Positions 3,837 to 34,266 of a DNA stretch of 64,000 nucleotides are shown piece by piece. Under the pieces are notes generated by a model. That model did no database searches and had not been told where the DNA came from. It saw nothing but the letters and a program-made list of their open reading frames with translations. Every line of letters starts with the position of its first letter. Positions within the stretch are counted from its first letter, which is position 1. Origin of the DNA: an uncultured Bacillota bacterium (GTDB lineage Bacteria; Bacillota_I; Bacilli_A; RF39; UBA660); contig ONIZ01000001.1 of assembly GCA_900317975.1 (NCBI GenBank), positions 135,479 to 199,478 of the forward strand, read 5' to 3'. The position numbers were made by a program, and so were the translations under genes.

Positions 3837-3846
3837 CTATTCCCTT
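3820..3846. terminator. bidirectional stem-loop between convergent genes
   Basis: Perfect 10-bp stem, aagggaatag (3820..3829) with ctattccctt (3837..3846), and a 7-nt loop that contains the stop codon of 2808..3836. Confidence 0.55.
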
Positions 3847-3851
3847 AGTTT

Positions 3852-5011: not shown

Positions 5012-5030
5012 CTAAATATATAAATATATT

Positions 5031-6674: not shown

Positions 6675-6707
6675 GTATATATTATCTCATATATTTTATT
6701 ATGTTTC

Positions 6708-6724
6708 TATATAATTAAAAATAA
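6708..6724 (-). promoter_or_regulatory. motif A, copy 3
   Basis: Exact 17-mer, 33 nt upstream of the ATG at 6674. Confidence 0.5.
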
Positions 6725-6726
6725 AA

Positions 6727-6746
6727 TTTGACTATTTTAATATTAT
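6727..6746 (+). promoter_or_regulatory. motif B, copy 2
   Basis: tttgACTATtttaatattat, immediately after motif A and upstream of 6813. Confidence 0.45.
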
Positions 6747-6812
6747 GATAAGCCACATATAAATATGTTGATGATCATATGAAAAATATAAATATATGTA
6801 AAATATAGTTAA

Positions 6813-7373
6813 ATGAAGTTAATAATTATAGAGGGAACAGACAATGTTGGAAAAGATACACTTATTTCAAGAATTATGGAAAACTACGATGTAATGACAC
6901 TCATTCATTGTGGTAAGCCAAAGTCAAAAGATCATCCAAATGAATCACAGGACAGTTTATTCAATTTCTATATAAAAAGTATAATAAACAAGAAATATAA
7001 TAATTCAGATGTCATTATTATGAACAGATCTCATATAGGTGAAGCAGTCTATGGAGTATTATATAGGAATAGGGACATAAATGAAGTATTGAAGAAGATT
7101 CATGATTGGAATGTTGAGCTTATGAAATGTCCAGACCTTGAAGTAAAGTATATACAATTATTAAGTACATCCGAAAGACTATTGAAGAACAATGAAGATG
7201 GACAGTCATTATCAAAGGGAAATAGTTCTAATATAATAAAAGAAACAGCATTGTTTACAGAAGCATATGTAAAGTCATTTTTAGACAAGAAACTTATATA
7301 TGTAGATGATAATGGAGAATTCAGGACAAAAGAAGATATATTTGATGAAGCATGGGATTTCATTAATAAATAA
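6813..7373 (+). CDS. thymidylate-kinase-like P-loop (d)NMP kinase
   Basis: MKLIIIEGTDNVGKDTL matches the Tmk-type IEGxDxxGK(T/S)T P-loop. Size is 186 aa. Confidence 0.55.
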   Translation: MKLIIIEGTDNVGKDTLISRIMENYDVMTLIHCGKPKSKDHPNESQDSLFNFYIKSIINKKYNNSDVIIMNRSHIGEAVYGVLYRNRDINEVLKKIHDWNVELMKCPDLEVKYIQLLSTSERLLKNNEDGQSLSKGNSSNIIKETALFTEAYVKSFLDKKLIYVDDNGEFRTKEDIFDEAWDFINK

Positions 7374-7397
7374 AAAGATATTAGATAAGAAGATATT

Positions 7398-8102
7398 ATG
7401 ATTAAGACAGAAGATATATTGAAACAGTTCAAAGAAAAGTATGATAATAAAGATTTTAGAATAATTGGCAATAATGTACAGCAAGCAAAGACAATTGAGT
7501 TACAGAATGTACAGTTTGAAGTAGATAAGCCATGGATAGTAAGAGAACCAAACTATGATTATTTCAATAGAGAGCTTGAATGGTATAAGTCAGAATCATT
7601 GAATGTGAATGATATCCCAGAAGGTGCTCCAACAATGTGGAAGTCTTGTGCAACACCAATAGGATATATTAATTCAAATTATGGGTGGATGATCTGGTCT
7701 AAAGACAACTATAATCAATTTGATCATTGTCTACAAAAACTAATTGAGGATCCACATACAAGAGAGGCATGTATGATATATAATAGACCATCAATGCAGG
7801 AAGACTATAATAAATTTGGCATGCATGATTTTTGTTGTACATATTCTGTTCAATGTTTCATAAATGAAGACAAAGAAGGAAAGAAGCATCTAAAATATAT
7901 TGTATATATGAGAAGTAATGATGCAGTATTTGGATTTGATAATGATGCATTATGGCATAAGTATGTTCAGCAAATGCTAAGGAATAGACTTAGTGAACAT
8001 TTTAATGAAGAATTCATAGCAGACAATATTATATGGAATGCAGGATCATTACATATTTATGAAAGACATTTCAAATATTTAGAGGATGGACAAAACGAGT
8101 GA
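7398..8102 (+). CDS. deoxycytidylate 5-hydroxymethyltransferase (T4 gp42-like, thymidylate synthase superfamily)
   Basis: Long colinear matches to T4 gp42 as recalled: RELEWYKSESLNVNDIP, INSNYGWMIWSKDNYNQFDHC, MIYNRPSMQEDYNKFGMHDFCCT, YMRSNDAVFGFDNDALW, IIWNAGSLHIYERHF. The nucleophile Cys and the Asp that replaces the ThyA Asn are both present. Confidence 0.8.
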   Translation: MIKTEDILKQFKEKYDNKDFRIIGNNVQQAKTIELQNVQFEVDKPWIVREPNYDYFNRELEWYKSESLNVNDIPEGAPTMWKSCATPIGYINSNYGWMIWSKDNYNQFDHCLQKLIEDPHTREACMIYNRPSMQEDYNKFGMHDFCCTYSVQCFINEDKEGKKHLKYIVYMRSNDAVFGFDNDALWHKYVQQMLRNRLSEHFNEEFIADNIIWNAGSLHIYERHFKYLEDGQNE

Positions 8103-8676
8103 CATAAAGAGAAAGTTGTTAGATGAGCTTAAAGCTAATAATGTAAAAGATTGCGGATATAATTGCCAAAGTGGAAGAAGATATGTAGAAGTAAAGAATG
8201 CATTGTTTGAAGTTAACAAAGATCGTATTTTTGAAAACATTCCTAAATTGTCTTATATGGATGATTCTTGGTATGTAGCAAATTATGAGCCTTTGCTAGA
8301 AAGGAATGATCAATATAATAAATGCATTAATAAGTTGATTGAGAATCCAGCATCACGTCAAGCAGTTCTCATATTAGTAGATCCTAAAGAATATGACAAT
8401 GAAGACAAAACATTCATATGTACAATGTATATGCATATCTTTCTCAATCATATAGAAGAAAATAAATATGAATTGGAATATATTGTGCATATGAGGTCAA
8501 ATGATGCTATAGAATTCATAACCGATCATCAATGGCACCAGAAAATTTATTTTCGAATTTTTAATGAATTAATTGAGAAAACGAACTATATTATAATAAA
8601 GAAACCTATTGTTTGGAATGCAGATACTATTCATCTATATGAGCAGTTTTGGGATCAAGCAATAGACAATTATTAA
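8086..8676 (+). CDS. divergent second gp42/ThyA-family paralog
   Basis: FICTMYMHIF (Cys), HMRSNDAIEFITDHQWH (RSND plus Asp), IVWNADTIHLYEQFW. It lacks the N-terminal segment of about 40 aa. It overlaps the upstream paralog by 17 nt. Confidence 0.6.
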   Translation: MDKTSDIKRKLLDELKANNVKDCGYNCQSGRRYVEVKNALFEVNKDRIFENIPKLSYMDDSWYVANYEPLLERNDQYNKCINKLIENPASRQAVLILVDPKEYDNEDKTFICTMYMHIFLNHIEENKYELEYIVHMRSNDAIEFITDHQWHQKIYFRIFNELIEKTNYIIIKKPIVWNADTIHLYEQFWDQAIDNY

Positions 8677-8695
8677 CTTATAATATATATAGAGT

Positions 8696-9379
8696 ATGAA
8701 ACATAAGATATCCGCATCAATAATGTGTGTAGACAACCTATTAGATCTACAGTCAGAAATAAAGACATTAGAAGACATAGGTATTGACTATTTGCATTTG
8801 GATGCGATGGATGGGCATTTTGTAAATAATATTACATTTGGCCCAGATATTTTCAATGCTGTTCAAAAATGTTCTTCAATTCCTTGTGACTATCATCTTA
8901 TGCTTGATAATCCATTACCATTCATACAAAGACTTGATCTTAACAATAATGATATTGTGACTATTCATGCTGAGATTGATTCACAAAGATTTGAAGAAGC
9001 ATTTGAATATTTGAAGACATTAAAGAAAAGAGGAGTAAAGATAGGAGTAGCAATCAATCCGGGTACATCAATAGAATCATTGGTGAAATACTTGGATGAT
9101 ATTGATGTGATATTAGTCATGCTTATCAATCCTGGTTTTGCTGGTCAACCTATTATTGATGGAATATTACAAAAGCCTGTATATATCAGGAAATATCTAG
9201 ATTCACTTAATCATAAGAAGATAATGATATCTGTTGATGGTGGTGTATCAGTGGAAAGAGCAAAATATCTTTCAAAGAATGGTATAGACATGTTTGTTGG
9301 TGGTACTTCTGGTCTGTTCATAAAGAATAGTGATTTGAAAAAGAATGCAGAAATATTGAGAAAGAACATAAACAATTAA
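8696..9379 (+). CDS. rpe: ribulose-phosphate 3-epimerase family protein
   Basis: SIMCVD ... HLDAMDGHFVNNITFGP ... YHLML ... INPGFAGQ ... SVDGGV ... VGGTS is colinear with E. coli Rpe. Confidence 0.8.
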   Translation: MKHKISASIMCVDNLLDLQSEIKTLEDIGIDYLHLDAMDGHFVNNITFGPDIFNAVQKCSSIPCDYHLMLDNPLPFIQRLDLNNNDIVTIHAEIDSQRFEEAFEYLKTLKKRGVKIGVAINPGTSIESLVKYLDDIDVILVMLINPGFAGQPIIDGILQKPVYIRKYLDSLNHKKIMISVDGGVSVERAKYLSKNGIDMFVGGTSGLFIKNSDLKKNAEILRKNINN

Positions 9380-9413
9380 GACATAAATAAAACATAATAA
9401 TTAGATAATATAT

Positions 9414-11075
9414 ATGAAAGTTTTTATTACAACATCTGGAATTGGATCAAGACTATTAGAGCTTACAAAATATACTAATAAGTCAATGATCAAAATAGGC
9501 AAGAAACCTGTTATATCTTATATTATTGATGAATATCCTGAAGATACAGAGTTTGTCATTTCTCTTGGATATTTTGGTGATCACATCAAACAATATCTTG
9601 AGTTAGCATATCCTGACAAGAAGATTACATTTGTAAATGTTGATAACTATGCTGGTCCAGGATCATCTCAAGTCTATTCACAATTACAAGCTGAACAATA
9701 TCTTCAAGAGCCATTTATCTATCATGATTGTGATACTATTGTTCAGAACCTTCAAGAGCAGATACCAATGGATTTCAAATATAATTTCTTAGTAGGTTAT
9801 GAGACAAATTCAGAGTTATATGATGCTTTTGATTATGATGTGAATACTAAGACAAATGACAAGTATGACTCATATAAGCTTATAAAGACATATATGAAGC
9901 CTGATTCATTAGTAGGTATGCTTTCATTCATTGGTATTTGTGGTATATATGACTATAAGACATTCTGGAAATATATGCATAAAGCTTATGAGAATGAGAC
10001 AGTTCCCTATGACTTCTTGGTCTATCACAAATATGGAATGTTCAAAAACAGTCTTAGAGCAATAAAAGTTGATAACTGGACAGATACTGGAAATATTGCT
10101 GGTGTAAAGAATGCAAGAAAGATGTTCAAGGATCAGTTCTCAATATTAGACAAGAATGATCAGGCTATCTTCATCATAAAAGACAAGGTAATCAAGTTCT
10201 TTGCTAAAGATGGAGTAGTAGACAATCTCCTTGTTCATTATAATGCTATAAAAGAATTCTGTCAGCCAATAACTCAGAAGACAAAGAACTTTATGTGCTA
10301 TGACTATATTGATGCAGAGAATGCTATAGACAAAATGAATCCTGTAAGATTTGAGTCATTTATGAACACACTTAAGGATTCAGGTTTCTGGGACAACAAG
10401 GAATGGATTGACAAAGAATTGTTCTTTACATGTATGCATAATTTCTATCTTAACAAGAACATACAACGTGTCAATCAGTTCAAGGAATTCTATCAGGTTA
10501 CAGAAGACAAAGACATCTATGTGAATGACATTCTTATTCCAAAAGAATGGACTATTGAAAGGATGCTTAATGAGATGACAAAACTTGATGAATGGAAGAA
10601 TAGTGTACCTTCTGGATGGCATGGTGATTTTGTATTAGACAATATATTATATGATAGTAAGAATGAAAAATATATATTGTTAGACTGGAGACCTAACTTT
10701 GGGGAAATCATAGAATACGGAGATAAAAACTATGACTTTGGAAAGATGAATCATAACATCACATTCAATTTCAATAGTGCTTATAATGATTTGTTCTCCA
10801 TTGATGAATCCGATCCAGATAATATCTATATTAATATATTATGCAACAATTATGTCTATGAATGCAAAGAGGTATTAAGAAAATTTGTAGAAGAAAACTA
10901 TAATGTAAGATTCCCTTATATTGAAATGATTACTGGAGCATGTTGGGTAAGTATGTCACCATTGTATTTCCTCAATCCAGTATCAAAGTTCTTGTTCTAT
11001 ATGGGTAAACTTACTCTTTATGTAAACTTAATGAAATTACTTGGAAATAAGATAACAACAAAATTTGACAAATAA
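9414..11075 (+). CDS. bifunctional sugar-phosphate nucleotidyltransferase (N-terminal) and APH/choline-kinase-fold kinase (C-terminal)
   Basis: N-terminus MKVFITTSGIGSRLLELTKYTNKSMIKIGKKPVISYII matches the GxGxRL ... K signature. C-terminus WHGDFVLDNILYD ... YILLDWRPNFG matches the HGDxxxxN plus D kinase motifs. Confidence 0.65.
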   Translation: MKVFITTSGIGSRLLELTKYTNKSMIKIGKKPVISYIIDEYPEDTEFVISLGYFGDHIKQYLELAYPDKKITFVNVDNYAGPGSSQVYSQLQAEQYLQEPFIYHDCDTIVQNLQEQIPMDFKYNFLVGYETNSELYDAFDYDVNTKTNDKYDSYKLIKTYMKPDSLVGMLSFIGICGIYDYKTFWKYMHKAYENETVPYDFLVYHKYGMFKNSLRAIKVDNWTDTGNIAGVKNARKMFKDQFSILDKNDQAIFIIKDKVIKFFAKDGVVDNLLVHYNAIKEFCQPITQKTKNFMCYDYIDAENAIDKMNPVRFESFMNTLKDSGFWDNKEWIDKELFFTCMHNFYLNKNIQRVNQFKEFYQVTEDKDIYVNDILIPKEWTIERMLNEMTKLDEWKNSVPSGWHGDFVLDNILYDSKNEKYILLDWRPNFGEIIEYGDKNYDFGKMNHNITFNFNSAYNDLFSIDESDPDNIYINILCNNYVYECKEVLRKFVEENYNVRFPYIEMITGACWVSMSPLYFLNPVSKFLFYMGKLTLYVNLMKLLGNKITTKFDK

Positions 11076-11078
11076 GAT

Positions 11079-11993
11079 ATGAAGATAGCCGGAATTACAG
11101 TTGCTTACAATGAAGGTAATATGGTGAAATATGTAATGCCATATTATGAGAAAATGGGTATTGATAAATTGATAGTCTATGACAATATGTCTACTGATGA
11201 CATGTGTGAAAAACTTTCTAAATATCCATTTGTGGAGATTCGTCATTTTGATACTAATGGGAAGTTTGATGACAGAAAGAATTCTGATCTCAAGGAAGAA
11301 GTGTCTTATGAATTACTTCAAGAAGGATATGATTGGGTATATACTGGAGACTTTGATGAAATAGTCTATTGTGAAGGTGATTTCAAGAAGGAACTTGAGA
11401 AAATTGAGGAATTAGGTGGAACAGTACTTTGTAGAGACATGATCCAGCCATTCAATCCATTGCCTTATGACTTTGATGAGACAAAACTTATTCATGAACA
11501 ATGTACTCATTTCCTTACATGGCATGACTGGTCAAGTACATGGGGTGGATCAAAGGTATTGTTGAGAAGTAAGAAAGTACCGAAGATAAAGTTGTCATTA
11601 GGTGCCCATGGAACAGGATTTCCAAAGAAGGGTATTGAGACAGATCCAGTATTGTTTGGCTATCCTTTCATCACATTCCATCTCAAATATGTTGACTTTA
11701 CTGCATTAGAGCATAATTCTCACGAAAAGCATGCAAGAATACAATGGAGATTAGATGTCCCAACATGTACAGCAGTAGATGCATCATTTACAAAACGTCT
11801 TTATTCTCGTACAATGGGTGATGCTGGTATAAAGAATACTATAGATAAATTAATGAAGAAGACAAGTAAACTTAATATTGCTCCTGGTTGGGAATCATTC
11901 AAGGAATACTATGATAAAAACTATAAGATGAATATGACTAAATTTAAAAATATTAAACACGTAAAAAGATTAGATTATGAACAGAACAGCTGA
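11079..11993 (+). CDS. GT-A fold glycosyltransferase (GT2-like)
   Basis: ITVAYNEGNMV ... LIVYDNMSTDD ... GDFDEIV (DxD-like). Confidence 0.5.
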   Translation: MKIAGITVAYNEGNMVKYVMPYYEKMGIDKLIVYDNMSTDDMCEKLSKYPFVEIRHFDTNGKFDDRKNSDLKEEVSYELLQEGYDWVYTGDFDEIVYCEGDFKKELEKIEELGGTVLCRDMIQPFNPLPYDFDETKLIHEQCTHFLTWHDWSSTWGGSKVLLRSKKVPKIKLSLGAHGTGFPKKGIETDPVLFGYPFITFHLKYVDFTALEHNSHEKHARIQWRLDVPTCTAVDASFTKRLYSRTMGDAGIKNTIDKLMKKTSKLNIAPGWESFKEYYDKNYKMNMTKFKNIKHVKRLDYEQNS

Positions 11994-13323
11994 AAAGAAC
12001 ATTTTGATCGGAAAAATTGGAAAATCAATTAAATTCAAGAACTTAGACATTAGAACGGGTGGTGATGCATGCATGATATTCTATTCATCAATTGCAAGAA
12101 TGAATCCTGAATATAACTTCTATTGGATTGGCCCAAACCAGATGAACAAGCTTAGTCAGGAGGAGTATGACTATATATTCCCTAACCATAACGTATTCTC
12201 TGCTTATGGATCAGATTATGACAACCCTAATGCACATCCATTCCAGCCAATATTGGATTATTTCAAAAATAATGACATAAAGATTGACTTCGCTTTGCTT
12301 ATGTCTGGAATGTGCTCAGGTCTCAATGTACCGAATTTCATGAAGAGTAAGAAGACTGGTGAATATGCTAAGATCTTGAATGCATTCAAAAACTATGTTG
12401 GTCCCTATATCTGGACACTTAATGAAACAAATGTGCCTTTCTATCTTATTTCAGAGGATGCAAGATATATTACAACAAATGCTACTGATCTCTGTAACAG
12501 GGAAAGACTTATCTTTACACAAACAAATGGTTATTTCAATCCTATTCCCCATATCACATCATTGACAGACTTCACATTGAAAGAAGATAGCTCAATCAAA
12601 TGTATCTATGGATATGTTGAGAGAATATTTATGATGGGTCTTAGTCATGACTGGAAAGAGAAGATTGATATTGACAGGAAACTTCATTCTACTGGAAACA
12701 GACTTATTGTTATCTCAAATGGATGTGGTCAGAAAGATATCAATAGAGCAAATGGCGGAAAGGGTTCAAGACTTCCTGAATACAAGAAATATATCATTGA
12801 CAATCTTAAGAATACCGAATATTCTGGTACAAAGATCTATGGACAGTGGGATGACAAGACATATGCTAAATATCCTGATACTGTCATTGACAAGCCACTT
12901 GTAGAACTTGAAGATGAAGTAGCAGATGCTCGTTATTCATTAGTATATTCTATCATGCCTGGGTTTGTTACTGTAAAAGCTTGGGAAATGATCATCAAGG
13001 GTCTTATCCCATTTATCCATCCCGATTATGACAAAGACAGACTTCTTGGACTTCCTGAATATTGTTATCTTAAGGATGAGAAAGACTTGTTGATAAAGAT
13101 GAGAGAACTTGATGCTCATGATGAATTATATCTACGCTTATTGAATAATTGCTTTAATTGCATATCAGAAGATGATCTCAATGGTAAGCGAATGAACAAT
13201 TTCATATTCAACAAGATTGCAGAAGATCTGGGATTTGAGTATAAAGAGAAAGAAGGATGTGAATCTATTTTTGATCATTTCTCAAAGACTGTATTTGATC
13301 CTTCAAAAGTTATAAATAAATAG
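11977..13323 (+). CDS. possible DNA beta-glucosyltransferase-like protein (T4 BGT-like, tentative)
   Basis: PFYLISEDARYIT resembles T4 BGT IYYLFTDIRLPF, which holds the catalytic Asp. VTVKAWEMIIKGLIPFIHPDYD resembles ITLRVWETMASDAVMLIDEEFD. Both comparisons are from memory. Overlaps the upstream GT by 17 nt. Confidence 0.4.
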   Translation: MNRTAEKNILIGKIGKSIKFKNLDIRTGGDACMIFYSSIARMNPEYNFYWIGPNQMNKLSQEEYDYIFPNHNVFSAYGSDYDNPNAHPFQPILDYFKNNDIKIDFALLMSGMCSGLNVPNFMKSKKTGEYAKILNAFKNYVGPYIWTLNETNVPFYLISEDARYITTNATDLCNRERLIFTQTNGYFNPIPHITSLTDFTLKEDSSIKCIYGYVERIFMMGLSHDWKEKIDIDRKLHSTGNRLIVISNGCGQKDINRANGGKGSRLPEYKKYIIDNLKNTEYSGTKIYGQWDDKTYAKYPDTVIDKPLVELEDEVADARYSLVYSIMPGFVTVKAWEMIIKGLIPFIHPDYDKDRLLGLPEYCYLKDEKDLLIKMRELDAHDELYLRLLNNCFNCISEDDLNGKRMNNFIFNKIAEDLGFEYKEKEGCESIFDHFSKTVFDPSKVINK

Positions 13324-13332
13324 ACAATATAT

Positions 13333-13824
13333 ATGAACAAGATAATTGTAATTAGCGATATTGATGGTTGCTTGACAGATGGAGGACTTTATTATACTGC
13401 TGATGGCAAAGTAATGAAGAAGTTTGGAGTTGGTGATCATGAAGGAGTAAAGCTTTTACGAAAGAACAATATAGATATCCTGTTTATCACTGCCGATAAG
13501 ACAGGATATCCTATTGTCAAACGTAGAATAGATGATATGAAATGTGATCTTGTTGTTGTAAATGAAATAGAACGATTAGACTTCATTAAAGAATATGTGA
13601 AAGAATATGAACAAGTGGTATTCTTTGGAGATGGTCTTGGGGATGCTAATGTGAAGAGCAAAATCCCAGAAATATATTTCATAACTCCAAGAAACGCCAG
13701 AAATGAAGCTAAATATGTTTCTGACTATATCACCGAAAACAAAGGTAGTGAAGGAGCTTTCTTAGATCTTGCTATACATGTTTCTTGGAAAACAAATACA
13801 TATTATAATAAACTATATGAATAG
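13333..13824 (+). CDS. KdsC-family HAD phosphatase (KDO-8-P / KDN-9-P phosphatase type)
   Basis: VISDIDGCLTDGGLYYTADGKVMKKFGVGDHEGVKLL ... FFGDGLGD is typical of the HAD-IIIA KdsC pattern. Confidence 0.75.
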   Translation: MNKIIVISDIDGCLTDGGLYYTADGKVMKKFGVGDHEGVKLLRKNNIDILFITADKTGYPIVKRRIDDMKCDLVVVNEIERLDFIKEYVKEYEQVVFFGDGLGDANVKSKIPEIYFITPRNARNEAKYVSDYITENKGSEGAFLDLAIHVSWKTNTYYNKLYE

Positions 13825-15109
13825 ACAAATAAGATGGGCAGCAATACAACCGCTTACTGGAGGTATGTATCTTGGGGCTGAAGAAGCTATAGGAAATAAA
13901 GCCGAATGGATCATGTCATTCAAAGGATTAGATACTGTCAAATATTCAAAGACTGATCCAACACAAATGACATCTGTTGGCAATGAATATAACCTATTGA
14001 AATATCTAGAAAAGAAAGGGAGATCTGTACCCTATTATGTCATTAATAGTCCAATGTTTGATATTGACATAAACAGTACAAATGTTGACATTACTTTAGA
14101 TGGTGACAAGGCAACTCCTGATTATAATGATATTGACATAATTGTTGGTGTTCCTGTTTGTTCAGGTCTTTCAATGGTCACAAGTGGTAGTGAAGAGACA
14201 AAGAAGCAGAGAAACTGCAATATGCAATGGATGGCTAATTATACATTACAAGTAATAAGGCCAAAGGTATATATATTTGAGAATGCTCCAACATTGATGA
14301 CAGAACGTGGTGAGTATCTAAGAGAATGGTTTAATGAATTAGCATCTTTGAATGGTTATTCTATTCTCTATTATAAGACAGATACTATTCTTCATAACAA
14401 TCCGCAAAAACGTCCTCGTACATTTGTCATTTTTGTAAAGCATAACAAGTATGAGGCACAACAAGATCCACCATTGTTTGATTGGGAAAAGAAACCTATA
14501 TCATTAGAAGATTTTTTGAACAATATACCAGAAGGACTTGAGCAAGATGTTCCTGTATCAACAAGCCCAAATAACTTCTATTTGAAAGACTTTATGAATG
14601 AAGAATATAATAATGACTGGAAGAAACTTATCAATGGATCCGTCATGAACTTCATCATCAAAGAAAAGAAATTAGACAAGTTGATTAAGCATACTGAAAA
14701 TAATGACAAATATGGAGATGAGAACAAGGAGAAGACATTGAAATATTTCAATCATATTAAGAAGAAGAAAGAAATGGGATTGAATTTCTATGGTAATGAT
14801 CTTGTATATTTCAAAGACAAACTTCCTTCTGTTCAATTTAGAGCAATCCCTAATATGGTACATATAACAAAGGACAGAATATATACTATAAGAGAATATC
14901 TTACATTTATGGGAATGCCTTATGACTTTATCTTATATGGAGACAAGTCTAATCTTCCAAAGATCGCTCAGAATGTTCCAGTAGGTACAGCAAAATTCAT
15001 AGTTGAACAAGCAGTAAAGATCATTGAGAACTGGGGACAAGAAAGAACAACAAATCATAATGCGTTATATCAAAACAATATAGAACAAAAGACAAGAAAC
15101 GGGGATTAA
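13817..15109 (+). CDS. DNA (cytosine-5)-methyltransferase-fold enzyme
   Basis: Motifs in order: PLTGGMYLG (I), GVPVCSGLS (IV), IFENAPTL (VI), QKRPRTFVIF (VIII), REYLTFMGMPYDF (IX), AQNVPVGTAKFI (X). I use the ATG at 13817, which overlaps the upstream stop as ATGAATAG. The track start at 13769 is a TTG. Confidence 0.75.
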   Translation: MNRQIRWAAIQPLTGGMYLGAEEAIGNKAEWIMSFKGLDTVKYSKTDPTQMTSVGNEYNLLKYLEKKGRSVPYYVINSPMFDIDINSTNVDITLDGDKATPDYNDIDIIVGVPVCSGLSMVTSGSEETKKQRNCNMQWMANYTLQVIRPKVYIFENAPTLMTERGEYLREWFNELASLNGYSILYYKTDTILHNNPQKRPRTFVIFVKHNKYEAQQDPPLFDWEKKPISLEDFLNNIPEGLEQDVPVSTSPNNFYLKDFMNEEYNNDWKKLINGSVMNFIIKEKKLDKLIKHTENNDKYGDENKEKTLKYFNHIKKKKEMGLNFYGNDLVYFKDKLPSVQFRAIPNMVHITKDRIYTIREYLTFMGMPYDFILYGDKSNLPKIAQNVPVGTAKFIVEQAVKIIENWGQERTTNHNALYQNNIEQKTRNGD

Positions 15110-15152: not shown

Positions 15153-15177
15153 AATGAACTATATTATATATGTAAAA
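15153..15177 (+). promoter_or_regulatory. motif B, copy 6
   Basis: aatgaACTATattatatatgtaaaa, about 30 nt upstream of the small ORF at 15198. Confidence 0.45.
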
Positions 15178-15197
15178 AATATTAAATATATATTATT

Positions 15198-15374
15198 ATG
15201 GAAAAAATTATCAATATTCTGATTTCAAGAGACAACATGGAATATGAAGATGCCAGAGCTCTTGTTATTGAGACTAGGGATGAGATCATTTCAAATCCTG
15301 ATTTAGCTGATGAGATCATTATGGACTATCTTGGTCTGGAACCTGATTATCTTGAAGATCTATTGTTTTCTTAA
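15198..15374 (+). CDS. small acidic hypothetical protein (58 aa), below the ORF-track size cutoff
   Basis: ATG at 15198 and TAA at 15372..15374. Translation is MEKIINILISRDNMEYEDARALVIETRDEIISNPDLADEIIMDYLGLEPDYLEDLLFS. It fills the gap between motif B and the lysozyme gene. Confidence 0.35.
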   Translation: MEKIINILISRDNMEYEDARALVIETRDEIISNPDLADEIIMDYLGLEPDYLEDLLFS

Positions 15375-15387
15375 ATATATATAAGAT

Positions 15388-16077
15388 ATGAAGGCAGAAA
15401 ATAAGATTATTGCTTTGTTTTTCTATGGTGCTATGGCTTACCAATTGTTCTATGTCAACAATACAGTAGCAGAAAACAAAACTAATGTTATTACAAGAGA
15501 CCAGGTGTTCAATGAATTAACAATGTTCAATGATGATGAACAACCAAAGAACATTGAACAAGTATCTTCTAAGAAAATTGTAAAGCATCATCCAAGAAAG
15601 AGATACAAGTTATCAAAGAAGGGAAAGAACTTCATTAAGAAACATGAGACTTGTGTACTTCATGCTTATAATGATCCAGACCCAAAACGTCGTTCAGTAG
15701 GTTGGGGACATCAGATTCAGCCAGGTGAGAACCTTGAACATATCACTAAAGCTAAAGCTGATGAGTTGTTTGAAAAAGATGTTGAATGGGTAAATGATGC
15801 AATCAACAGGCTTATTGCTCAACAAGACAACAGGTTTACTTATTCACAAGGATTTATTGATGGTCTTGGTAGTCTTATCTACAACTGTGGAGAACGTGGA
15901 GTTACTTTGACAGAGTTCTGGGCAAGATGGAAGAAATGCCGTTATGATGCCAGCTCACCAGAATATATCAATAGGAATGACTGGAACTATACTATTGCAG
16001 CAGTAAAGACAAGCAGGATCTCAGCTCCCGGTCATGTAGAAAGAAGATATAATGAGCATATGCTAATGTTAGACTAA
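15388..16077 (+). CDS. GH24 (T4-type) lysozyme with an N-terminal membrane anchor (SAR or signal-anchored endolysin)
   Basis: KKHETCVLHAYNDPDPKRRSVGWGH has the E-8aa-D-(S/T) catalytic spacing of T4 lysozyme. The N-terminus has the hydrophobic segment IIALFFYGAMAYQLFYV. Confidence 0.75.
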   Translation: MKAENKIIALFFYGAMAYQLFYVNNTVAENKTNVITRDQVFNELTMFNDDEQPKNIEQVSSKKIVKHHPRKRYKLSKKGKNFIKKHETCVLHAYNDPDPKRRSVGWGHQIQPGENLEHITKAKADELFEKDVEWVNDAINRLIAQQDNRFTYSQGFIDGLGSLIYNCGERGVTLTEFWARWKKCRYDASSPEYINRNDWNYTIAAVKTSRISAPGHVERRYNEHMLMLD

Positions 16078-16229: not shown

Positions 16230-17282
16230 ATGAAGAAGTTTATTTTAAGTTTGATGCTGATGTTCAGCATGGTAATGGGTGTTTCCGCTCAGACCGCTAT
16301 TGAGACACCCAAGTTTTTTGACAATTGGTATGTTGGTGTAAATGCCGGCGCTACCACTAATTTAGAGTTCAATAAGGTTTTCCCAGTAAATGCAACTGTT
16401 GGTGCAGTACTTGGAAAAGAGTTTACTCCTGTATTTGGTGCACAGATTGAAGGTGTAACATGGCTTGGTGATGCTAATTTTGCTAATTCACATACTGCTT
16501 TCAAAGCAATTGATCTTTGTGTAAATGGAACAGTTAATTTTAGTAACTTGTTCTTTGGATATCTTGGAACACCTCGTAAGTTTGAAGTAAGTGGTGTAGC
16601 TGGTATCGGTTGGCTTCATATCTATGGTGACCACAATCTTGATGGCACTTATGGTCATGAAGACAATGATGAGTTTATAGCAAAGACTGCCGTAAATCTT
16701 GCTTGGAATCTTGGTAAGACAAGATCACATCAGTTATATGTACAGCCAGGTATCTATTGGAACTTGACAAATGGTCCTCGTGATTATGTACATTTCAATA
16801 GTAAGCATGCACAGGTTGGTGTATCTGTTGGTTATGTCTACAAATTCAAGACAAGCAATGGAACACATAATTTCAAGACTTATGATGTAGGCATGATGCA
16901 GGATGAAATTTCAAGATTGAATGATGCTCTTGCAGCTTGTGAGAATCGTCCTCCACGCGAAGTTACAAAGGAAGTTGCCGTAAGGGTTCCTGTACCTGCA
17001 TTTGAGGTAATTGAGTTTGAGCTTGGTTCTTATGAATTGTTAGATGAGGCAAAGGCTAAGCTTGATAAGATTGATGAGCGAATGACTGTAGAAATTACAG
17101 CTACAGCTTCTCCTGATGGAAAAGAACAATTTAATAAAGAGTTGTCAGACAAACGTGCTCAGGCAGTAGCAGACTATCTTAAGGGTAGAGGAGTTACTGT
17201 AAAGAGTGCCGAAGGTCAGGGAGTCAAGTTGAACAGATTAGCTATAGTTACATTTGTTCGTCCTGAAAGACCACGTAGATAA
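16230..17282 (+). CDS. OmpA-family outer membrane protein (signal peptide, beta-barrel and OmpA C-terminal domain)
   Basis: Signal peptide MKKFILSLMLMFSMVMGVSAQ. The N-terminal half is rich in G, Y, W and N, as in beta-barrels. C-terminal TATASPDGKEQFNKELSDKRAQAVADYLKGRGV matches the NxxLSxxRAxxV motif. The gene is visibly richer in G+C than its neighbours. Confidence 0.8.
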   Translation: MKKFILSLMLMFSMVMGVSAQTAIETPKFFDNWYVGVNAGATTNLEFNKVFPVNATVGAVLGKEFTPVFGAQIEGVTWLGDANFANSHTAFKAIDLCVNGTVNFSNLFFGYLGTPRKFEVSGVAGIGWLHIYGDHNLDGTYGHEDNDEFIAKTAVNLAWNLGKTRSHQLYVQPGIYWNLTNGPRDYVHFNSKHAQVGVSVGYVYKFKTSNGTHNFKTYDVGMMQDEISRLNDALAACENRPPREVTKEVAVRVPVPAFEVIEFELGSYELLDEAKAKLDKIDERMTVEITATASPDGKEQFNKELSDKRAQAVADYLKGRGVTVKSAEGQGVKLNRLAIVTFVRPERPRR

Positions 17283-17324: not shown

Positions 17325-17354
17325 AAAGAGTAGGATAACGTTATCCTACTCTTT
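17325..17354. terminator. bidirectional terminator between convergent genes
   Basis: Perfect 14-bp stem, aaagagtaggataa (17325..17338) with ttatcctactcttt (17341..17354), and a 2-nt loop. Confidence 0.7.
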
Positions 17355-17369
17355 GTTGATTATGTTTGA

Positions 17370-17765
17370 TTATAAATTTTCTTTATTTGTATATGAGAGT
17401 CCTGTTGTCTTGTCTTCAATGATTTTCTTTAATATAAGATATAGTCCGTAAATATAGTCTTTAGTTTGATTAATATCTATATGTATAGTATCATCAATGA
17501 AGTCTATGAATATCTTTAAGTTTCCACCAAATATAGGGTTATTGTCTTTATTCATATTCATATAGTCTTCAATTGATTTCTGGTTAAACCCAGGTGTTTT
17601 CCTGAAATAGTCAACAACATCTATAAATGATTTCTTTTCATCATCTTTCTTATTGAAATATGTATTAAGTTTCCAGAAGAAATTATCATCTATAGATTCT
17701 TCAATTTGTCTATGTCTTATATATTCATTATACTTTTTCATTTTTGTCTTCTTTATTGTCATCAT
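17370..17765 (-). CDS. hypothetical protein; an internal Met at 17741 gives the CTS-like N-terminus MKKYNEYIRH
   Basis: 131-aa ORF. It is the last gene of a three-gene minus-strand operon. Confidence 0.5.
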   Translation of the reverse strand: MMTIKKTKMKKYNEYIRHRQIEESIDDNFFWKLNTYFNKKDDEKKSFIDVVDYFRKTPGFNQKSIEDYMNMNKDNNPIFGGNLKIFIDFIDDTIHIDINQTKDYIYGLYLILKKIIEDKTTGLSYTNKENL

Positions 17766-18441
17766 ATTTGATTTCTTTAACAGCTACTGAACCAAATAAC
17801 TTGTTTTCTTTTACAAAGTCACAATCATTCAAAAGTTGATTATACAGTTCTTTATTTGCTTTCTCTTGACATTGTATTTTGACAAAATCTTTAGCTTTTA
17901 AGATATCTTTACTGTCTAAAAGAATTTCAACAACATTTTGGAGTTTTATAGATTTTTCATATTCGGTAATTATTTGAATCTTAAGTAAATCTAAGTCAAA
18001 ATCATTCTTTCTACCTTTTATCAATGCAACAATATCTTTTATCTCTTCATCTTCATAGCATAGACCATAGTATAAATCATTTTTGTTATTTTCTTTTGTC
18101 ACATAGTCTTCAATGAACTTATAGAATCCAAGTTTATCATCTTCATTTGGAATGACACCTTGTGGAGCTATAATTTTCTTTATATGCTTTTGATCAATAT
18201 ACATCATTTTGCATTTGTTTAGATCAAAATGCTTTTTAATATATTGCTTATATTTCTCTATACTATCTCCCTTAAATATCTTATCATATTCATCCGGATC
18301 ATAACGGAATCTGTCATATTTCTTAGTTGATGGAGAAAAAAGATTATTAAACCATTCTTTTATAGCATCCCAAATCTTTCCTTCATGTATCTCATCATTG
18401 TATTCTAATTCTTCTAATAAATATTGTTGTAAAGTCTTCAT
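17728..18441 (-). CDS. hypothetical protein with a T4-CTS-like N-terminus
   Basis: MKTLQQYLLE compares with the T4 internal-protein capsid targeting sequence MKTYQEFIAE. It shares an I(K/S)EWFxNLF motif with 18438..19097. Confidence 0.55.
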   Translation of the reverse strand: MKTLQQYLLEELEYNDEIHEGKIWDAIKEWFNNLFSPSTKKYDRFRYDPDEYDKIFKGDSIEKYKQYIKKHFDLNKCKMMYIDQKHIKKIIAPQGVIPNEDDKLGFYKFIEDYVTKENNKNDLYYGLCYEDEEIKDIVALIKGRKNDFDLDLLKIQIITEYEKSIKLQNVVEILLDSKDILKAKDFVKIQCQEKANKELYNQLLNDCDFVKENKLFGSVAVKEIKYDDNKEDKNEKV

Positions 18442-19097
18442 TTAAAATTCTTAAAGAAAATATTTTTATTGTTGTTTTGAACTTTATAACCTAATAATGT
18501 AGTCATAGTCTTCTTTATTTCAGGCAAAGATAGAATATATTTAGCACCATTGAAATTTTTGTTCTTCATATTTGTTTCAAAGATACTATAGATATACTTT
18601 TCTACTGCTTCTTTGTTGTCAATTGAATCAATCACTTCTACATTAAATACATTAACATAGTTTTCATCATTTTTTGTATCTTCATCAAACAATATTATAC
18701 CTATATACTTCTTGTTGTCTGTCTTCTCATCCATTATATAGAAATATCTGTCTATCTTTATTGGATATTCAATTTTCTTCTTGTTGTCAGGAGATTCATG
18801 AACAAAATATTCATTCTTTTTAGATATCAACTTAGATGTAATAGGGAACCCAATATTCTCATCATTAATTATCTTCATTTCATTCTTATCTGCTAATGTG
18901 TCTGATAATTTTGATGGACTATCAGGGCTTTTTATATTTTTGATATTCTTATTGTCTATTGTGAAAGTTACTTCATCGGGTGATAATTCTTGTTGTGATT
19001 TGAATAGATTCTTAAACCACTCAGATATCTTACCAAGTAATCCTTCATTAAGTGTTTCAATTTCTCTTTCTGTAATATATCTATTGAATGATTGCAT
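18438..19097 (-). CDS. hypothetical protein with a T4-CTS-like N-terminus, paralog of 17728..18441
   Basis: MQSFNRYITE, then GKISEWFKNLF. Motif A lies 18 nt upstream. Confidence 0.55.
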   Translation of the reverse strand: MQSFNRYITEREIETLNEGLLGKISEWFKNLFKSQQELSPDEVTFTIDNKNIKNIKSPDSPSKLSDTLADKNEMKIINDENIGFPITSKLISKKNEYFVHESPDNKKKIEYPIKIDRYFYIMDEKTDNKKYIGIILFDEDTKNDENYVNVFNVEVIDSIDNKEAVEKYIYSIFETNMKNKNFNGAKYILSLPEIKKTMTTLLGYKVQNNNKNIFFKNFK

Positions 19098-19115: not shown

Positions 19116-19132
19116 TATATAATTAAAAATAA
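19116..19132 (-). promoter_or_regulatory. motif A, copy 4
   Basis: Exact 17-mer, 18 nt upstream of the ATG at 19097. Confidence 0.5.
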
Positions 19133-26760: not shown

Positions 26761-26798
26761 AAATAAAATAGTGAAATTAATTTGTATATGTTCTTATT

Positions 26799-26814
26799 TT
26801 ATATTTAAAAATAA
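26799..26814 (-). promoter_or_regulatory. degenerate motif A (ttatatttaaaaataa)
   Basis: Lacks the AAT of the exact 17-mer. About 38 nt upstream of the ATG at 26760. Confidence 0.3.
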
Positions 26815-26857: not shown

Positions 26858-27307
26858 ATGACATCATTCATCAAGAATATGAAGCCCAAGAAAGGGTTCT
26901 ATAAGCAAGGAATAGTCAATCCAAAATTGTTGAAGAAATATGCGGATTCTTTAAAGAATGAACCTATTATCTATAGAAGTGGATTAGAACTACAATTCAT
27001 CCAATATTGTGAAAATAATCCATCTATTATAAAATGGGCGTCTGAACCAATAGAGATTCCATATTTCTGTAGATTAGACCAAAAAGAACATAAATACTAT
27101 CCTGACTATATTCTAGAAAACAAGCAAGGGAACAAGGTCATCGTAGAAGTAAAGCCTTATAATCAGACAATAAAGCCAGATATGACAGATACTATTTGGC
27201 TGAAAGAAGCATGGGTAAAGAATATAGACAAATGGACTGCAGCAAAAGAATTTGCAGAAAAGCATAACATGAAATTCATTATAGTAACAGAAAAGTTCTT
27301 CACATAA
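26858..27307 (+). CDS. PD-(D/E)XK nuclease, T4 gp4-like head completion nuclease (tentative)
   Basis: YRSGLELQFIQYCENNPSIIKWASEPIEIPYF ... KYYPDYILENKQGNKVIVEVKP has the D ... E-x-K nuclease layout. Length is 149 aa, and I recall T4 gp4 as about 150 aa. Confidence 0.5.
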   Translation: MTSFIKNMKPKKGFYKQGIVNPKLLKKYADSLKNEPIIYRSGLELQFIQYCENNPSIIKWASEPIEIPYFCRLDQKEHKYYPDYILENKQGNKVIVEVKPYNQTIKPDMTDTIWLKEAWVKNIDKWTAAKEFAEKHNMKFIIVTEKFFT

Positions 27308-27328: not shown

Positions 27329-28021
27329 ATGCCTTTTAAGATAATTGCCAAAGATACTACTCAACCTAATGATAATTCTAAATTAGATGGGATGCAGACA
27401 TTGCATGATATTGATAGATTCATATATGATGCAAAAAGTATTGAAGAATTCAGAATGGATGAAGCAATTGCTAGTCATCCGTTGATTCATCGTCCAACAA
27501 ACATTAGATCAAAATTGGCTTATGCAGATCTTCTCAAGGTATGTAAGCCTACAACTAAATATCTTCTTCCTGGGCAATGTGTCATATTTGGCTATGCTGA
27601 ACCTAAGTATAAGGAAGAACTTGAATACTATGACAAGACACCGTTCACAATGTTCTTGGGAATTACTCGTACAAATAATGGTGATATACGTGAAGTAGGA
27701 CTTAATCTTCATTACTATCCACCAAGAGTTCGTGCAAGAATTCTCCATACCACATATGAAGTATTTAAACATCATTTTCAGAAACATTTTAATGATCCAC
27801 CAGAAAAACCATCCGGATTCATTAACTATAATGCTTTGAAAAATATTTTAAAAAGAAATACAAAAATTGCTTTTGGTATAAAGATGTATATTCCAGTTCT
27901 AAGAGGCAAATCATATGTTCTTCCAACAAGACTATTACCTACTGCTTGTTGTACTGAAGGACACTTTTCAAAAGCAACATTAGCACAGATACATAAATAT
28001 TGGAGACAGTTCAAACAATAA
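27329..28021 (+). CDS. hypothetical protein. A T4 gp2-like DNA end protector is a speculative possibility based on position next to the gp4-like gene.
   Basis: 230-aa ORF. Contains a VGLNLHYYPPRVRARIL segment. Its last 24 nt belong to the tandem repeat at 27998..28138. Confidence 0.5.
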   Translation: MPFKIIAKDTTQPNDNSKLDGMQTLHDIDRFIYDAKSIEEFRMDEAIASHPLIHRPTNIRSKLAYADLLKVCKPTTKYLLPGQCVIFGYAEPKYKEELEYYDKTPFTMFLGITRTNNGDIREVGLNLHYYPPRVRARILHTTYEVFKHHFQKHFNDPPEKPSGFINYNALKNILKRNTKIAFGIKMYIPVLRGKSYVLPTRLLPTACCTEGHFSKATLAQIHKYWRQFKQ

Positions 28022-28166: not shown

Positions 28167-29021
28167 ATGAAGGTAGCAATTTGTACTGTTGGTAGACTAG
28201 AAAATAGATATATCAATGAATTCGTTGATCATTATAGAAATATTGGAATTGATAAAATATTCATTCATGACAATAACTATGATGGAGAAGATCATTTTGA
28301 AGATGTATTACAACAAGATATAAATAGTGGATTAGTTGAAATTATTAATTACAGAAATAGACAAGTATGTCAACTAGAAGCTTATATGAAATGTTATGAA
28401 CTTCATAAAAATGAATATGATTGGATTCTTTTTATAGATTGTGATGAATTTCTTTATATGGAGCATTTTAATAATATTCATGAATTCTTAGCTCAACCGA
28501 AATTCAATAGTTTTCAAATGATTCATATCAATTGGATGATTTATGGTGATAATGATTTAGTATATTATGAAAATAAAAAATTAAAAGATCGATTTATTAA
28601 TCCAATATTACCTTTTAATTTTAAGACTACAGAAAATGATATGACATTTAATTGTCATATTAAATCAATTATTAGAGGAGGATTAGAAAGATTAATTTTT
28701 GTTTATAGTCCACATACACCTGAAAATAATTTTAAATGTTGTGATGCCACCGGTAATGTATGTCAGTCAAATAGTCCATTTCTTGTTCCGTATAACTTTA
28801 CTGAAGCACATTTCAAGCATTATGTTACAAAGACAATTGATGAATATTATCATATTAAAGTTAAAAGAGGATTTCCGGATGTAAATAAAGATTTCTTTAA
28901 AACTAATAATTGGATTGAACAATTTTTTAAGATAAATAAAATGACAATAGAAAAACAACTATATATAAGAGGACTATATAATAAAAATATTGTAAAAAAT
29001 GAAAAATTAAATGGAATTTAA
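28167..29021 (+). CDS. GT-A fold glycosyltransferase (GT2 / GT92-like)
   Basis: MKVAICTVGRLENRYINEFVDHYRNIGIDKIFIHDNNYDGED ... ILFIDCDEFL. I prefer the ATG at 28167. The track start at 28059 is a TTG inside the repeat. Confidence 0.6.
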   Translation: MKVAICTVGRLENRYINEFVDHYRNIGIDKIFIHDNNYDGEDHFEDVLQQDINSGLVEIINYRNRQVCQLEAYMKCYELHKNEYDWILFIDCDEFLYMEHFNNIHEFLAQPKFNSFQMIHINWMIYGDNDLVYYENKKLKDRFINPILPFNFKTTENDMTFNCHIKSIIRGGLERLIFVYSPHTPENNFKCCDATGNVCQSNSPFLVPYNFTEAHFKHYVTKTIDEYYHIKVKRGFPDVNKDFFKTNNWIEQFFKINKMTIEKQLYIRGLYNKNIVKNEKLNGI

Positions 29022-29070
29022 CCCATAGTATTTCTATTTTAATAATATTAAAAATATTTTTTTACAATAT

Positions 29071-29916
29071 ATGAATAATAGATTTTGTATTGTAATTCCT
29101 GTCTATAAAACAGATTTAAGTATAACAGAGGAATTATCATTTAGAAACTTTATCAATACTTTCAAAAACAAAGACAACAATATTTTCTTCATATGCCCAG
29201 ATGACCTTGATACAACTGCATATGATACTGTCATAAAAAATGAATTGTCTAAGAAAGATAAGTTATTGATAGAAAGAAAGAATTTTGATGCCAAATATTT
29301 CAAAAGTGAATTCACTTATAGTCAGTTATGTGTTAACTATGATTTCTATAGTTCATTTGATGATTATGACTATATGCTTATCTGGCAGTTTGATTGCTAT
29401 CTATTCAATGATAATATTGAAAAATGGTGTGATAAGGGATATGACTATATAGGAGCACCAATCATTTCTGAATATAGTGGATGGAAAAGCAATAATGATA
29501 TTGTATGGAAGCCAAAAGTCGGCAATGGCGGATTAAGCTTAAGAAAGATTAGTACATTCAAAGATGTCACAAATCCAGAAGGAGAATTCTTGACATACTA
29601 TAAGTCAACTTATAATAATAATTTGTTTGAAAAACTTAAGTTTGAAGATGTATATTTCTATAATGTGTTCCGTTATTATTGGGATGCTAATATTCCTTCA
29701 TGGGAAGAAGCTGGTCGATTTGCATTAGATATGAATCCAGAAGTATATGCTAATTTTGTTAATGATAAAGAATTCTTACCTATGGCTTGTCACGCATGGC
29801 CAAAGAATATTAGATTCTGGAAAGACAAAATAAAAGAAATAGACAATAACATAATAGATTATTGTGAAGAAAAATATAAAGAATTTTTTAAATTATATTA
29901 TGGAGAAAAAAAATGA
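29071..29916 (+). CDS. DUF5672-like putative glycosyltransferase
   Basis: YDYIGAPI ... VGNGGLSLRKI resembles the GNGGFSLR signature I associate with DUF5672. Called from memory. Confidence 0.4.
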   Translation: MNNRFCIVIPVYKTDLSITEELSFRNFINTFKNKDNNIFFICPDDLDTTAYDTVIKNELSKKDKLLIERKNFDAKYFKSEFTYSQLCVNYDFYSSFDDYDYMLIWQFDCYLFNDNIEKWCDKGYDYIGAPIISEYSGWKSNNDIVWKPKVGNGGLSLRKISTFKDVTNPEGEFLTYYKSTYNNNLFEKLKFEDVYFYNVFRYYWDANIPSWEEAGRFALDMNPEVYANFVNDKEFLPMACHAWPKNIRFWKDKIKEIDNNIIDYCEEKYKEFFKLYYGEKK

Positions 29917-30754: not shown

Positions 30755-30808
30755 TAAATATAATATTTAATATTAGATAAGTACTAGCAAACTTATAGAA
30801 CAAATATT

Positions 30809-30825
30809 TTATTTTTAATATATAA
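30809..30825 (+). promoter_or_regulatory. motif A in plus-sense orientation (ttatttttaatatataa, one base shorter)
   Basis: Reverse-complement orientation of the 17-mer, 32 nt upstream of the plus-strand ATG at 30858. Confidence 0.4.
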
Positions 30826-30857
30826 ATTCATAAACAAATATTTAAGATAATAGCAGT

Positions 30858-31856: not shown

Positions 31857-32123
31857 AATAACAAATAATCAAAATAAATAATAAAATAAAAGCAACGATA
31901 TGAAAGGGGTATTATACTTCTAGTGAGAAGTGATTGATATTCTATAAAATTATTTATATTATATCAGATACCCTTTATCGTATTTTAATTTTTCACTGGA
32001 AGGAAATTTTAATACGTATAAGAAAGTCGAATAAAAATCAATTTTTGAGGCAGAAAAATTGGGTATGATTTTTTGAAGACTAAATGCATATGTTGACCGA
32101 GAAGATGTCCAATAATTATATGC

Positions 32124-32849: not shown

Positions 32850-32872
32850 AAAATATATAGATGATTTAGATT

Positions 32873-33586: not shown

Positions 33587-33630
33587 GAATAAACATAAAA
33601 ATATTAAAAAATAAATAATATATATAAATT

Positions 33631-34029: not shown

Positions 34030-34045
34030 TTTTATATATATTAAA

Positions 34046-34136: not shown

Positions 34137-34230
34137 GTTCTGATGAATATTTCTCTTATGTTCATGAATGTATAATTCTTAATTTTTATTTTAAAATTTT
34201 TTCATTTATTTTATAAAATTATTTAAAAAC

Positions 34231-34250: not shown

Positions 34251-34266
34251 ATTAAGAGAAATTAAG

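Follow-up and report, generated by a model that had tools for sequence, protein, structure and literature searches.

Candidate T4-type capsid targeting leaders on the products of a three-gene phage operon and on a larger set of proteins in its relatives

The first 10 residues of internal protein III (IPIII) of bacteriophage T4 are sufficient for encapsidation (Mullaney & Black 1996, as summarised in the review PMC9026906), and mutagenesis of this capsid targeting sequence (CTS) indicates, according to the same review, that residues 4 and 7 mainly govern targeting, while residues 8 and 10 govern processing (PMC9026906). Internal proteins of T4-type phages are highly diverse, the CTS alone being conserved (PMC3012670), and CTS-like leaders have so far been described, in the literature consulted, for T4 and its close T-even relatives, with a few internal proteins carrying them. 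Here we analyzed a 64,000-nucleotide stretch of contig ONIZ01000001.1 (hereafter the window), in which three adjacent open reading frames (ORFs) on the minus strand, ORF1, ORF2 and ORF3, encode proteins starting with MKKYNEYIRH, MKTLQQYLLE and MQSFNRYITE, respectively. A first-pass annotation of the window had likened these N-termini to MKTYQEFIAE and had ascribed this sequence to T4 IPI, IPII and IPIII alike; in the T4 record only IPII and IPIII start in this way, IPI carrying a 19-residue leader, MKTFKEFTSTTTPVSTITE, followed by A. Our analysis indicates that the leaders of ORF1-3 are probably CTSs of the T4 type with a protease site, and that the set of proteins tagged in this manner has been greatly expanded. 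The basis of this reading is sequence logic together with phylogenetic context.

The three ORFs were confirmed as a tight operon with the N-termini given above: ORF3 at 18438-19097 (219 amino acids, aa), ORF2 at 17728-18441 (237 aa) and ORF1 at 17370-17741 (123 aa from the Met at 17741, the start used by public gene callers; its full open reading frame spans 17370-17765). The 10 leader codons occupy positions 19068-19097 in ORF3 (F4, Y7, I8, E10, followed by R) and 18412-18441 in ORF2 (L4, Y7, L8, E10, followed by E). The stop codon of ORF3 and the start codon of ORF2 share the sequence ATGA, and the last 14 nt of ORF2 are shared with the start of ORF1. The promoter-like 17-mer motif A (TTATTTTTAATTATATA) is present upstream as an exact copy on the same strand (19116-19132), with 18 nt between it and the start codon of ORF3, and a bidirectional hairpin terminator with a 13-bp stem (17325-17354), located between ORF1 and a converging OmpA-like gene, marks the end of the operon. 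Given the overlaps, the upstream motif A and the downstream hairpin, we concluded that ORF1-3 form a single compact transcription unit.

The conserved leader positions, Φ4 (hydrophobic or aromatic), Y/F7, I/L8 and E10, are the functional positions of the T4 IPIII CTS; K2 is conserved as well. Residues of the targeting type are found at positions 4 and 7 of all three proteins (L4/Y7 in ORF2, F4/Y7 in ORF3 and Y4/Y7 in ORF1). A uniform leader rule applied to the N-terminus only, M-x-x-Φ-x-x-[YFW]-[ILVM]-x-E, identified 3 of 57 window genes vs 0.04 expected, and the pattern used by the first-pass annotation itself occurs 3 times vs 0.002 expected per 57 genes; both counts are far above chance. 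With T4 MKTYQEFIAE, taken from the T4 record, as an a-priori query, we compared BLOSUM62 scores of N-termini with those of 18,899 internal 9-mers of the window. The N-terminus of ORF2 scored 30, above 18,899 of 18,899 internal 9-mers, and is the best T4 match in the window; the N-terminus of ORF1 was at the 1e-4 level and those of ORF3 and of a DUF285-repeat gene at the 1.2e-3 level. The latter gene (3852-4430, minus strand, 192 aa; PF03382, E=1e-20) is the last of a unit headed by motif A at 6708-6724, and its canonical leader, MKNLNHYISE followed by A, had rightly been recognized as the same pattern. In-frame stops are located 0-14 codons upstream of the leader Met.

Two further N-termini that had been listed as members were not counted. 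MKKFSKSINE (30858-31856, plus strand, followed by G) carries S at position 7 despite F4, I8 and E10 and scored 13, at the 0.5% background level; upstream of this gene there is a motif-A-like sequence with a 1-nt deletion. MKKFKEHLHT, the start of a 547-aa RimK-like ATP-grasp enzyme (5031-6674) that heads the motif-A unit ending with the leader-bearing DUF285 gene, is without Y7 and E10 and scored at the 0.5-1% background level. MKIYNSFGIK (47346-48116) is likewise missing key positions, with a score near background. Because of these missing key positions and near-background scores, all three weak candidates were dropped. A signal-peptide or membrane-targeting reading was rejected as well, the leader sequences being without a hydrophobic stretch.

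Applying the uniform rule to the loci reached in the flank and in other genomes, we found that the leader is much more widespread than the first-pass annotation had noticed. Leader genes amounted to 3 of 16 in L010, the left flank of the same phage (0.011 expected; one of the three is the window's own DUF285 gene), 12 of 27 in L001, a 232-kb relative (0.02 expected), 10 of 42 in L026, a 474-kb contig (0.07 expected), 5 of 10 in L025 (0.000 expected) and 4 of 6 in L027 (0.017 expected). In 80 kb of T4 the rule returned 2 of 120 genes, exactly IPII and IPIII (about 0.11 expected), thus yielding no false positives, and in three other T4-like or jumbo loci it returned 0 of 50 genes (about 0.06 expected). 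A chance product of composition, for which the frequency of K at position 2 (18 of 57 window genes) and the ~30% GC of the genome might speak, is refuted by these counts (3 observed vs at most 0.04 expected in the window, 10-12 vs 0.02-0.07 in relatives) and by the clean result in T4, and we consider it practically dismissed. Some leaders are very close to that of T4, e.g. MKTLQEYILE of P0005 vs MKTYQEFIAE, and in L010 two additional genes have the Glu displaced by one residue (MKDIKDYIINE and MKDIKDYIVNE). The cultured relative pT24 (NC_049383.1) carries leader-type N-termini in 5 of 155 genes (about 0.15 expected), gp057, gp102, gp126, gp130 and gp156, e.g. MRDIRDYIKES and MLGLERYIIES; all are annotated as hypothetical except gp156, 'P domain-containing', and no mention of these N-termini was found in the literature searched. 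The leader is therefore no peculiarity of three genes, as first supposed; these represent a minor share of a far more extensive group of genes that carry it.

The leader behaves as a modular peptide tag. BLASTP comparison of ~22 leader proteins, each without its first 12 residues, revealed no similarity except in one orthologous pair. The profiles of the ORF2 and ORF3 families align over the first 34 N-terminal columns only (hhalign probability 95.5%), comprising the leader and a helix, (N)EG..I..WFxNLF. Furthermore, residues 8-120 of ORF1 correspond (E=3e-25) to residues 165-270 of 274-aa proteins of L025 (2478-3302) and L027 (2250-3074) in which a P-loop kinase stands between a leader and the ORF1 domain, indicating gene fission or fusion. 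L026 has two genes at different places for the ORF1 domain and the kinase (10626-10961 and 15173-15679), each with its own canonical leader, MKNLNKYLKE for the ORF1 domain and MKSIITYIFE for the kinase; the former, followed by S, belongs to the L026 orthologue of ORF1 and has L-K-E at positions 8-10. Orthologues of ORF3 in L007, L026, L025, L027 and L028 retain M1 and E10, and in a 30-sequence alignment of the ORF2 family M1 is invariant and Y7 at least 90% conserved.

These data bear on the possibility that the leader is an inherited N-terminus, i.e. that the carriers are diverged paralogues of one ancestor whose first helix is structurally constrained and holds no signal. Jumbo phages often show paralogue expansion, the module common to ORF2 and ORF3 has 34 residues rather than 10, and ORF1 may have the same W/F helix. 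Against common descent stand the ~22 carriers that show no detectable similarity past residue 12, the different folds and families to which carriers belong (GNAT-like, DUF285, HAD, P-loop kinase and RNA-ligase-like), the Pfam domain of the HAD protein, which begins only at residue 22, the separate leader found on each half after gene fission, and the structural model of ORF2, in which the leader is left unpacked against the core. We regard inheritance as an improbable explanation.

Examination of the nucleotide logo of leader genes showed that upstream conservation is at most 0.6 bit per position, that the information resides mostly in codon positions 1-2, and that there is little conservation from codon 12 onward. 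Codon 4 varies (TTA, ATT, CTA, ATA, TAT, TTC), the hydrophobic or aromatic class being kept, and so does codon 8 (ATA, ATT, TTA, ATC, CTT, CTG). Since codons 4 and 8 vary and no conserved sequence lies upstream, selection acts on the peptide rather than on DNA. A signal at the RNA or DNA level, that is, a translation-initiation or regulatory element or the boundary of a recombination cassette in an AT-rich genome without Shine-Dalgarno sites, would be in keeping with the short AT-rich 5' regions of leader genes, and an AAA second codon and AT-rich starts favour initiation. It is very hard to reconcile with third and even first codon positions that vary while the amino-acid class stays, and with the low upstream information, and we give it little credence.

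To place the leader in the context of the head, we looked for T4 head genes. A homologue of T4 gp4 (head completion) is encoded at 26858-27307 on the plus strand (phmmer E=1.7e-23 vs T4 gp4), and a homologue of T4 gp2 (DNA end protector) follows at 27329-28021, also on the plus strand (E=2.4e-10 vs T4 gp2 and 4.3e-22 vs pT24 gp2; PF26869 on the orthologue), the two adjacent genes having the same arrangement as in T4. The gp4 homologue is evidence, by homology, for a T4-type head, and a kinase gene of the gp1 type at 2808-3836 likewise points to a T4-type phage. The nearest isolates by gp2 are the jumbo Tenacibaculum phages PTm1, PTm5 and pT24 and Sphingomonas phage PAU. The pT24 genes next to gp2 code for a portal of the T4 type (E=5e-93), a protease of the Peptidase_S77 (gp21) family that is fused to the scaffold, and a Gp23 capsid protein. 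P0024, P0033 and P0034, considered as head-module relatives, proved to belong to other T4-like lineages: their gp4 is 35-37% identical to that of the window, no closer than T4 gp4, and they are without motif A and without the leader. IMG/VR contained no relatives of the ORF2 family or of a 1568-aa protein, and blastn against GenBank phages revealed no related genome.

Motif A occurs in the window in six exact copies and one near copy (2 mismatches) vs 0.76 expected, and all seven sites are on the minus strand (949-965, 2718-2734, 6708-6724, 19116-19132, 26798-26814, 47254-47270 and 57597-57613). Every copy precedes a block of minus-strand genes, about 20-45 nt from its first ATG; these blocks include the fibre-like genes of 2865 aa and 2765 aa, a tail-fibre-like block (26760-21621) and the RimK-like/DUF285 unit. 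Variants of the motif were also found in the relatives L001 and L007. Motif A does not match the sigma-70 consensus or the T4 late TATAAATA box and is a probable phage-specific promoter of unassigned class. The proposal that the operon is driven by motif A like virion genes agrees with the exact copy in front of ORF3 and with the copies in front of the giant fibre-like genes.

We propose the following course of events. In a jumbo phage related to T4, ORF1-3 would be transcribed as one unit, and their products would all start with a homologue of the T4 CTS, in which Met1 is followed by a hydrophobic residue at position 4, Tyr or Phe at 7, Ile or Leu at 8 and Glu at 10. If T4 IPII and IPIII are taken as the model, the freshly made protein would attach through residues 4 and 7 to the scaffold core on which the prohead assembles, a prohead protease of the gp21 family would cut after (I/L)-x-E, and the mature protein would remain in the head and exit with the DNA at infection. 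Within this phage group, the operon would then account for a minor fraction of an extensive set of leader-tagged cargo proteins, enzyme-like ones among them. Docking, cleavage, packaging and injection of the leader proteins are all inferred from the T4 example. The first-pass claim of a T4-type CTS ending in a protease site draws support from the modularity of the leader, its conservation at the peptide level, the residues at positions 4, 7, 8 and 10, the presence of gp4 and gp2, and a motif A shared with fibre genes.

Several observations weigh against a CTS. The (L/I)-x-E ending claimed for all three 10-mers is present at positions 8-10 of ORF2 (L-L-E) and ORF3 (I-T-E), as read from the sequence; in ORF1 these positions are I-R-H, with H replacing E at position 10, and the first I-x-E is I-E-E at residues 13-15, followed by S. 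No protease, scaffold, portal or capsid gene is present in the 64-kb window, and the flanks reached (7.4 kb on the left, ~0.8 kb on the right) contain no head module. The S77 protease domain and the portal of pT24, used as queries, retrieved no protein from the 136,561-, 80,144- and 232,262-bp contigs of relatives. Because no head module was found in the sequence reached for this genome and its close relatives, the protease requirement is deduced from gp2, gp4 and the nearest isolate. The role of motif A as a promoter of late or virion genes is presumed. The mature proteins are acidic to neutral, with an isoelectric point (pI) of 4.9 for ORF1, 5.3 for ORF2 and 6.1 for ORF3, and of 4.4-6.5 for most leader proteins, vs 9.0-9.7 for the T4 internal proteins; ORF1-3 are thus no small basic DNA-associated proteins, which is a property of IPI-III and not of the CTS mechanism. 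In relatives, as many as half the genes within 20 kb are carriers, which is a lot for one capsid and leaves room for another role of the tag. Lastly, the carriers include enzymes of the RNA-repair type, which are not known as virion proteins in T4.

Alternatively, the leader might be a genuine peptide tag with a different purpose. A phage or host protease or chaperone might read it to time activation or turnover, or it might direct proteins to a non-capsid assembly, for instance a factory for replication or modification; its resemblance to the T4 CTS would then reflect a common (I/L)-x-E protease preference or convergence. The abundance of the tag (carried by 12 of 27 genes in L001 and by 10 of 42 in L026), its presence on cytoplasmic-type enzymes (HAD phosphatase, P-loop kinase, RNA-ligase-like), the acidity of the leader proteins and the lack of a head module linked to the tag in the window, in the reached flanks and in the pT24-seeded searches all fit such a role. 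Several facts point away from it: ten of ten positions follow the T4 CTS pattern, including 4 and 7, which are irrelevant to cleavage; the phage has head-completion genes of the T4 type; and the leader genes of this phage all lie in motif-A units alongside fibre-type virion genes. Moreover, we know of no alternative tagging system of this kind in T4-like phages. We therefore consider a tag for another purpose unlikely, though a real contender, and retain the T4-type CTS as the probable reading.

The leader-bearing proteins themselves are varied. ORF1-3 had no match in Pfam or PHROGs. An AlphaFold2 (AF2) model of ORF2, built on a 7-sequence alignment, reached a mean predicted local distance difference test (pLDDT) score of 79.9 and a predicted template modelling (pTM) score of 0.76; residues 1-30 form two helices with a pLDDT of about 50, and a confident alpha/beta core spans residues ~60-225. 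The leader is followed by a low-confidence helical linker, EGKIWDAIKEWFNNLF, and then by this core, which looks like a GNAT fold in the model. A Foldseek search with the core gave 182 PDB matches at E<=1e-3; the top matches listed are GNAT acetyltransferases, with template modelling (TM) scores of 0.45-0.54 as normalised by target length. At the sequence level the only PDB match was the acetyltransferase YlbP (E=0.15). Beyond the fourth strand the sequence reads ...IQIITEYEKSIKLQNVVE... and is without the glycine motif of the acetyl-CoA loop (Q/R-x-x-G-x-G/A), and since this loop is not recognisable, catalysis by ORF2 is doubtful. The ORF2 family is small, with 31 clusters at 50% identity among 1.84 billion representatives. 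In ORF3 the leader is followed by a conserved helix, LNEGLLGKISEWFKNLF, and then by a domain; the AF2 single-sequence model of this protein (pLDDT 36) was unusable.

Other carriers in relatives include a HAD phosphatase, whose Pfam domain starts from residue 22, an RNA-ligase-like protein with the motifs GGHMAHPFD and KLDG, and P-loop kinases. A trio resembling RNA-repair enzymes (P-loop polynucleotide-kinase-like, HAD phosphatase and RNA-ligase-like) is encoded at 11313-11957 and 17265-18485 in L001 and at 15173-15679 and 16789-18003 in L026. It is reminiscent of T4 PseT and Rnl, which to our knowledge are no virion proteins in T4.

Taking the whole carrier set into account, it is conceivable, at somewhat less than even odds, that jumbo to mega-sized phages of a T4-related lineage, with Bacteroidota as their probable hosts, have retained the ancestral T4 CTS and expanded its use, loading dozens of unrelated proteins per genome into the head, to be co-injected as a 'first-strike' proteome. 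In this expanded form the set would include P-loop kinase, HAD phosphatase, RNA-ligase-like, GNAT-fold and DUF285 proteins. If true, a 10-residue leader would predict the injected proteome of uncultivated phages from sequence alone, so that candidate injected proteins, likely sources of anti-defence and host take-over factors, could be listed from metagenomic data; the targeting code would be ancient, with CTS-scaffold recognition conserved across the whole T4 superfamily; and cargo could be large and enzymatic, going beyond a few basic DNA-binding proteins. It would also provide new, naturally diverse leaders for engineered protein delivery by phage capsids. As pT24 carries the same leader type, the prediction is testable in culture.

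Regarding the surroundings of the operon, the converging neighbour is an OmpA-family protein with a signal peptide (16230-17282), which adjoins a lysozyme gene (15388-16077); L007 and L026 have also kept the OmpA-like gene next to the leader triad. In T4, ipII and ipIII adjoin the lysozyme gene e and ipI is near gene 1, and the leader genes of the window are near the lysozyme gene and a gp1-like kinase gene. The region 2808-15109 is a cluster resembling a DNA base-modification pathway: it encodes a gp1-type deoxynucleoside monophosphate (dNMP) kinase (2808-3836), two adjacent thymidylate-synthase-like ORFs (7398-8102 and 8086-8676), a ribulose-phosphate-3-epimerase-like ORF (8696-9379), further ORFs of 553, 304 and 448 aa with no assigned family, a 163-aa ORF (13333-13824) and a C5 DNA methylase (13769-15109).

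Three giant genes lie on the minus strand in the remainder of the window. The first (38629-47226, 2865 aa) ends with a C-terminal Peptidase_S74 intramolecular-chaperone domain, the second (49258-57555) encodes 2765 aa, and the third (59234-64000) extends past the window end, encoding 1714 aa in L020, where a nucleoside diphosphate kinase gene follows. Between gp2 and the fibre genes there is a run of glycosyltransferase genes (GT2, GT92-like and DUF5672; 28167-36473), within which a glucosaminidase (32124-32849) and a Peptidase_G2 autoproteolytic chaperone domain (34874-35473) are encoded.

Among known systems, T4 IPII and IPIII, whose 10-residue CTS is described in PMC9026906, PMC3012670 and PMC5694885, are the closest. 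In both cases a 10-residue leader starts at Met1, M-K-(T/S)-Φ-(Q/N/K)-(E/Q/D)-(F/Y)-(I/L)-x-E, and is carried by otherwise unrelated small proteins of a phage with gp2 and gp4, and in both cases the genes adjoin a lysozyme gene, as ipII and ipIII adjoin e. The two differ in that the host lineage and the phage group of the window are very distant from T4, that the proteins here are acidic and form a far larger repertoire including enzyme-like ones, and that ORF2 and ORF3 have an extra common helix of 24 residues after the leader. The two-part 19-residue leader of T4 IPI, with its targeting head and distal I-x-E, is mirrored by a subfamily of ORF2 homologues (P0055, P0057-P0060) whose 20-residue leader, MIRLNEYIDIKQNPNQYILE, followed by K, resembles two leader halves in tandem. 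The window phage also seems to modify its DNA, as does T4, judging from its thymidylate-synthase-like, dNMP kinase and methylase genes, and mature IPI (IPI*) inhibits the GmrS/GmrD restriction enzyme. An analogy to this anti-restriction function, drawn by the first-pass annotation, found no support; the mature products of ORF1-3 are acidic, ORF2 looks GNAT-like, and the leader proteins are without sequence or fold similarity to IPI*.

T4 Alt, a packaged ADP-ribosyltransferase with a cleaved propeptide (MELITE followed by LFDE), is an example of enzyme-type cargo delivered with the DNA. ORF2, being GNAT-like, would be an analogous host-modifying enzyme, although its fold is unlike that of Alt. 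In phiKZ-like giant phages, e.g. SPN3US, a protease related to gp21 processes many different proteins inside the head, which are ejected into the cell (PMC5694885, PMC7411985). N-termini conserved among diverged paralogues are common to these phages and to the window phage and its relatives, whereas the phiKZ-like propeptides are long, mostly >100 residues, with no 10-residue leader of the T4 type, and belong to another lineage. They are cut at S/A/G-x-E. The Dar anti-restriction proteins of P1 are reportedly packaged in the head and co-injected for counter-defence, the same concept as that of the proposed cargo; they are said to have no common short cleavable leader and to use a different head assembly system. 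Together, these comparisons set out what appears to be new here: the best-supported novelty, judged from sequence, is the T4 CTS principle in a very distant lineage of jumbo phages, in which the tagged set would be enlarged and partly enzymatic.

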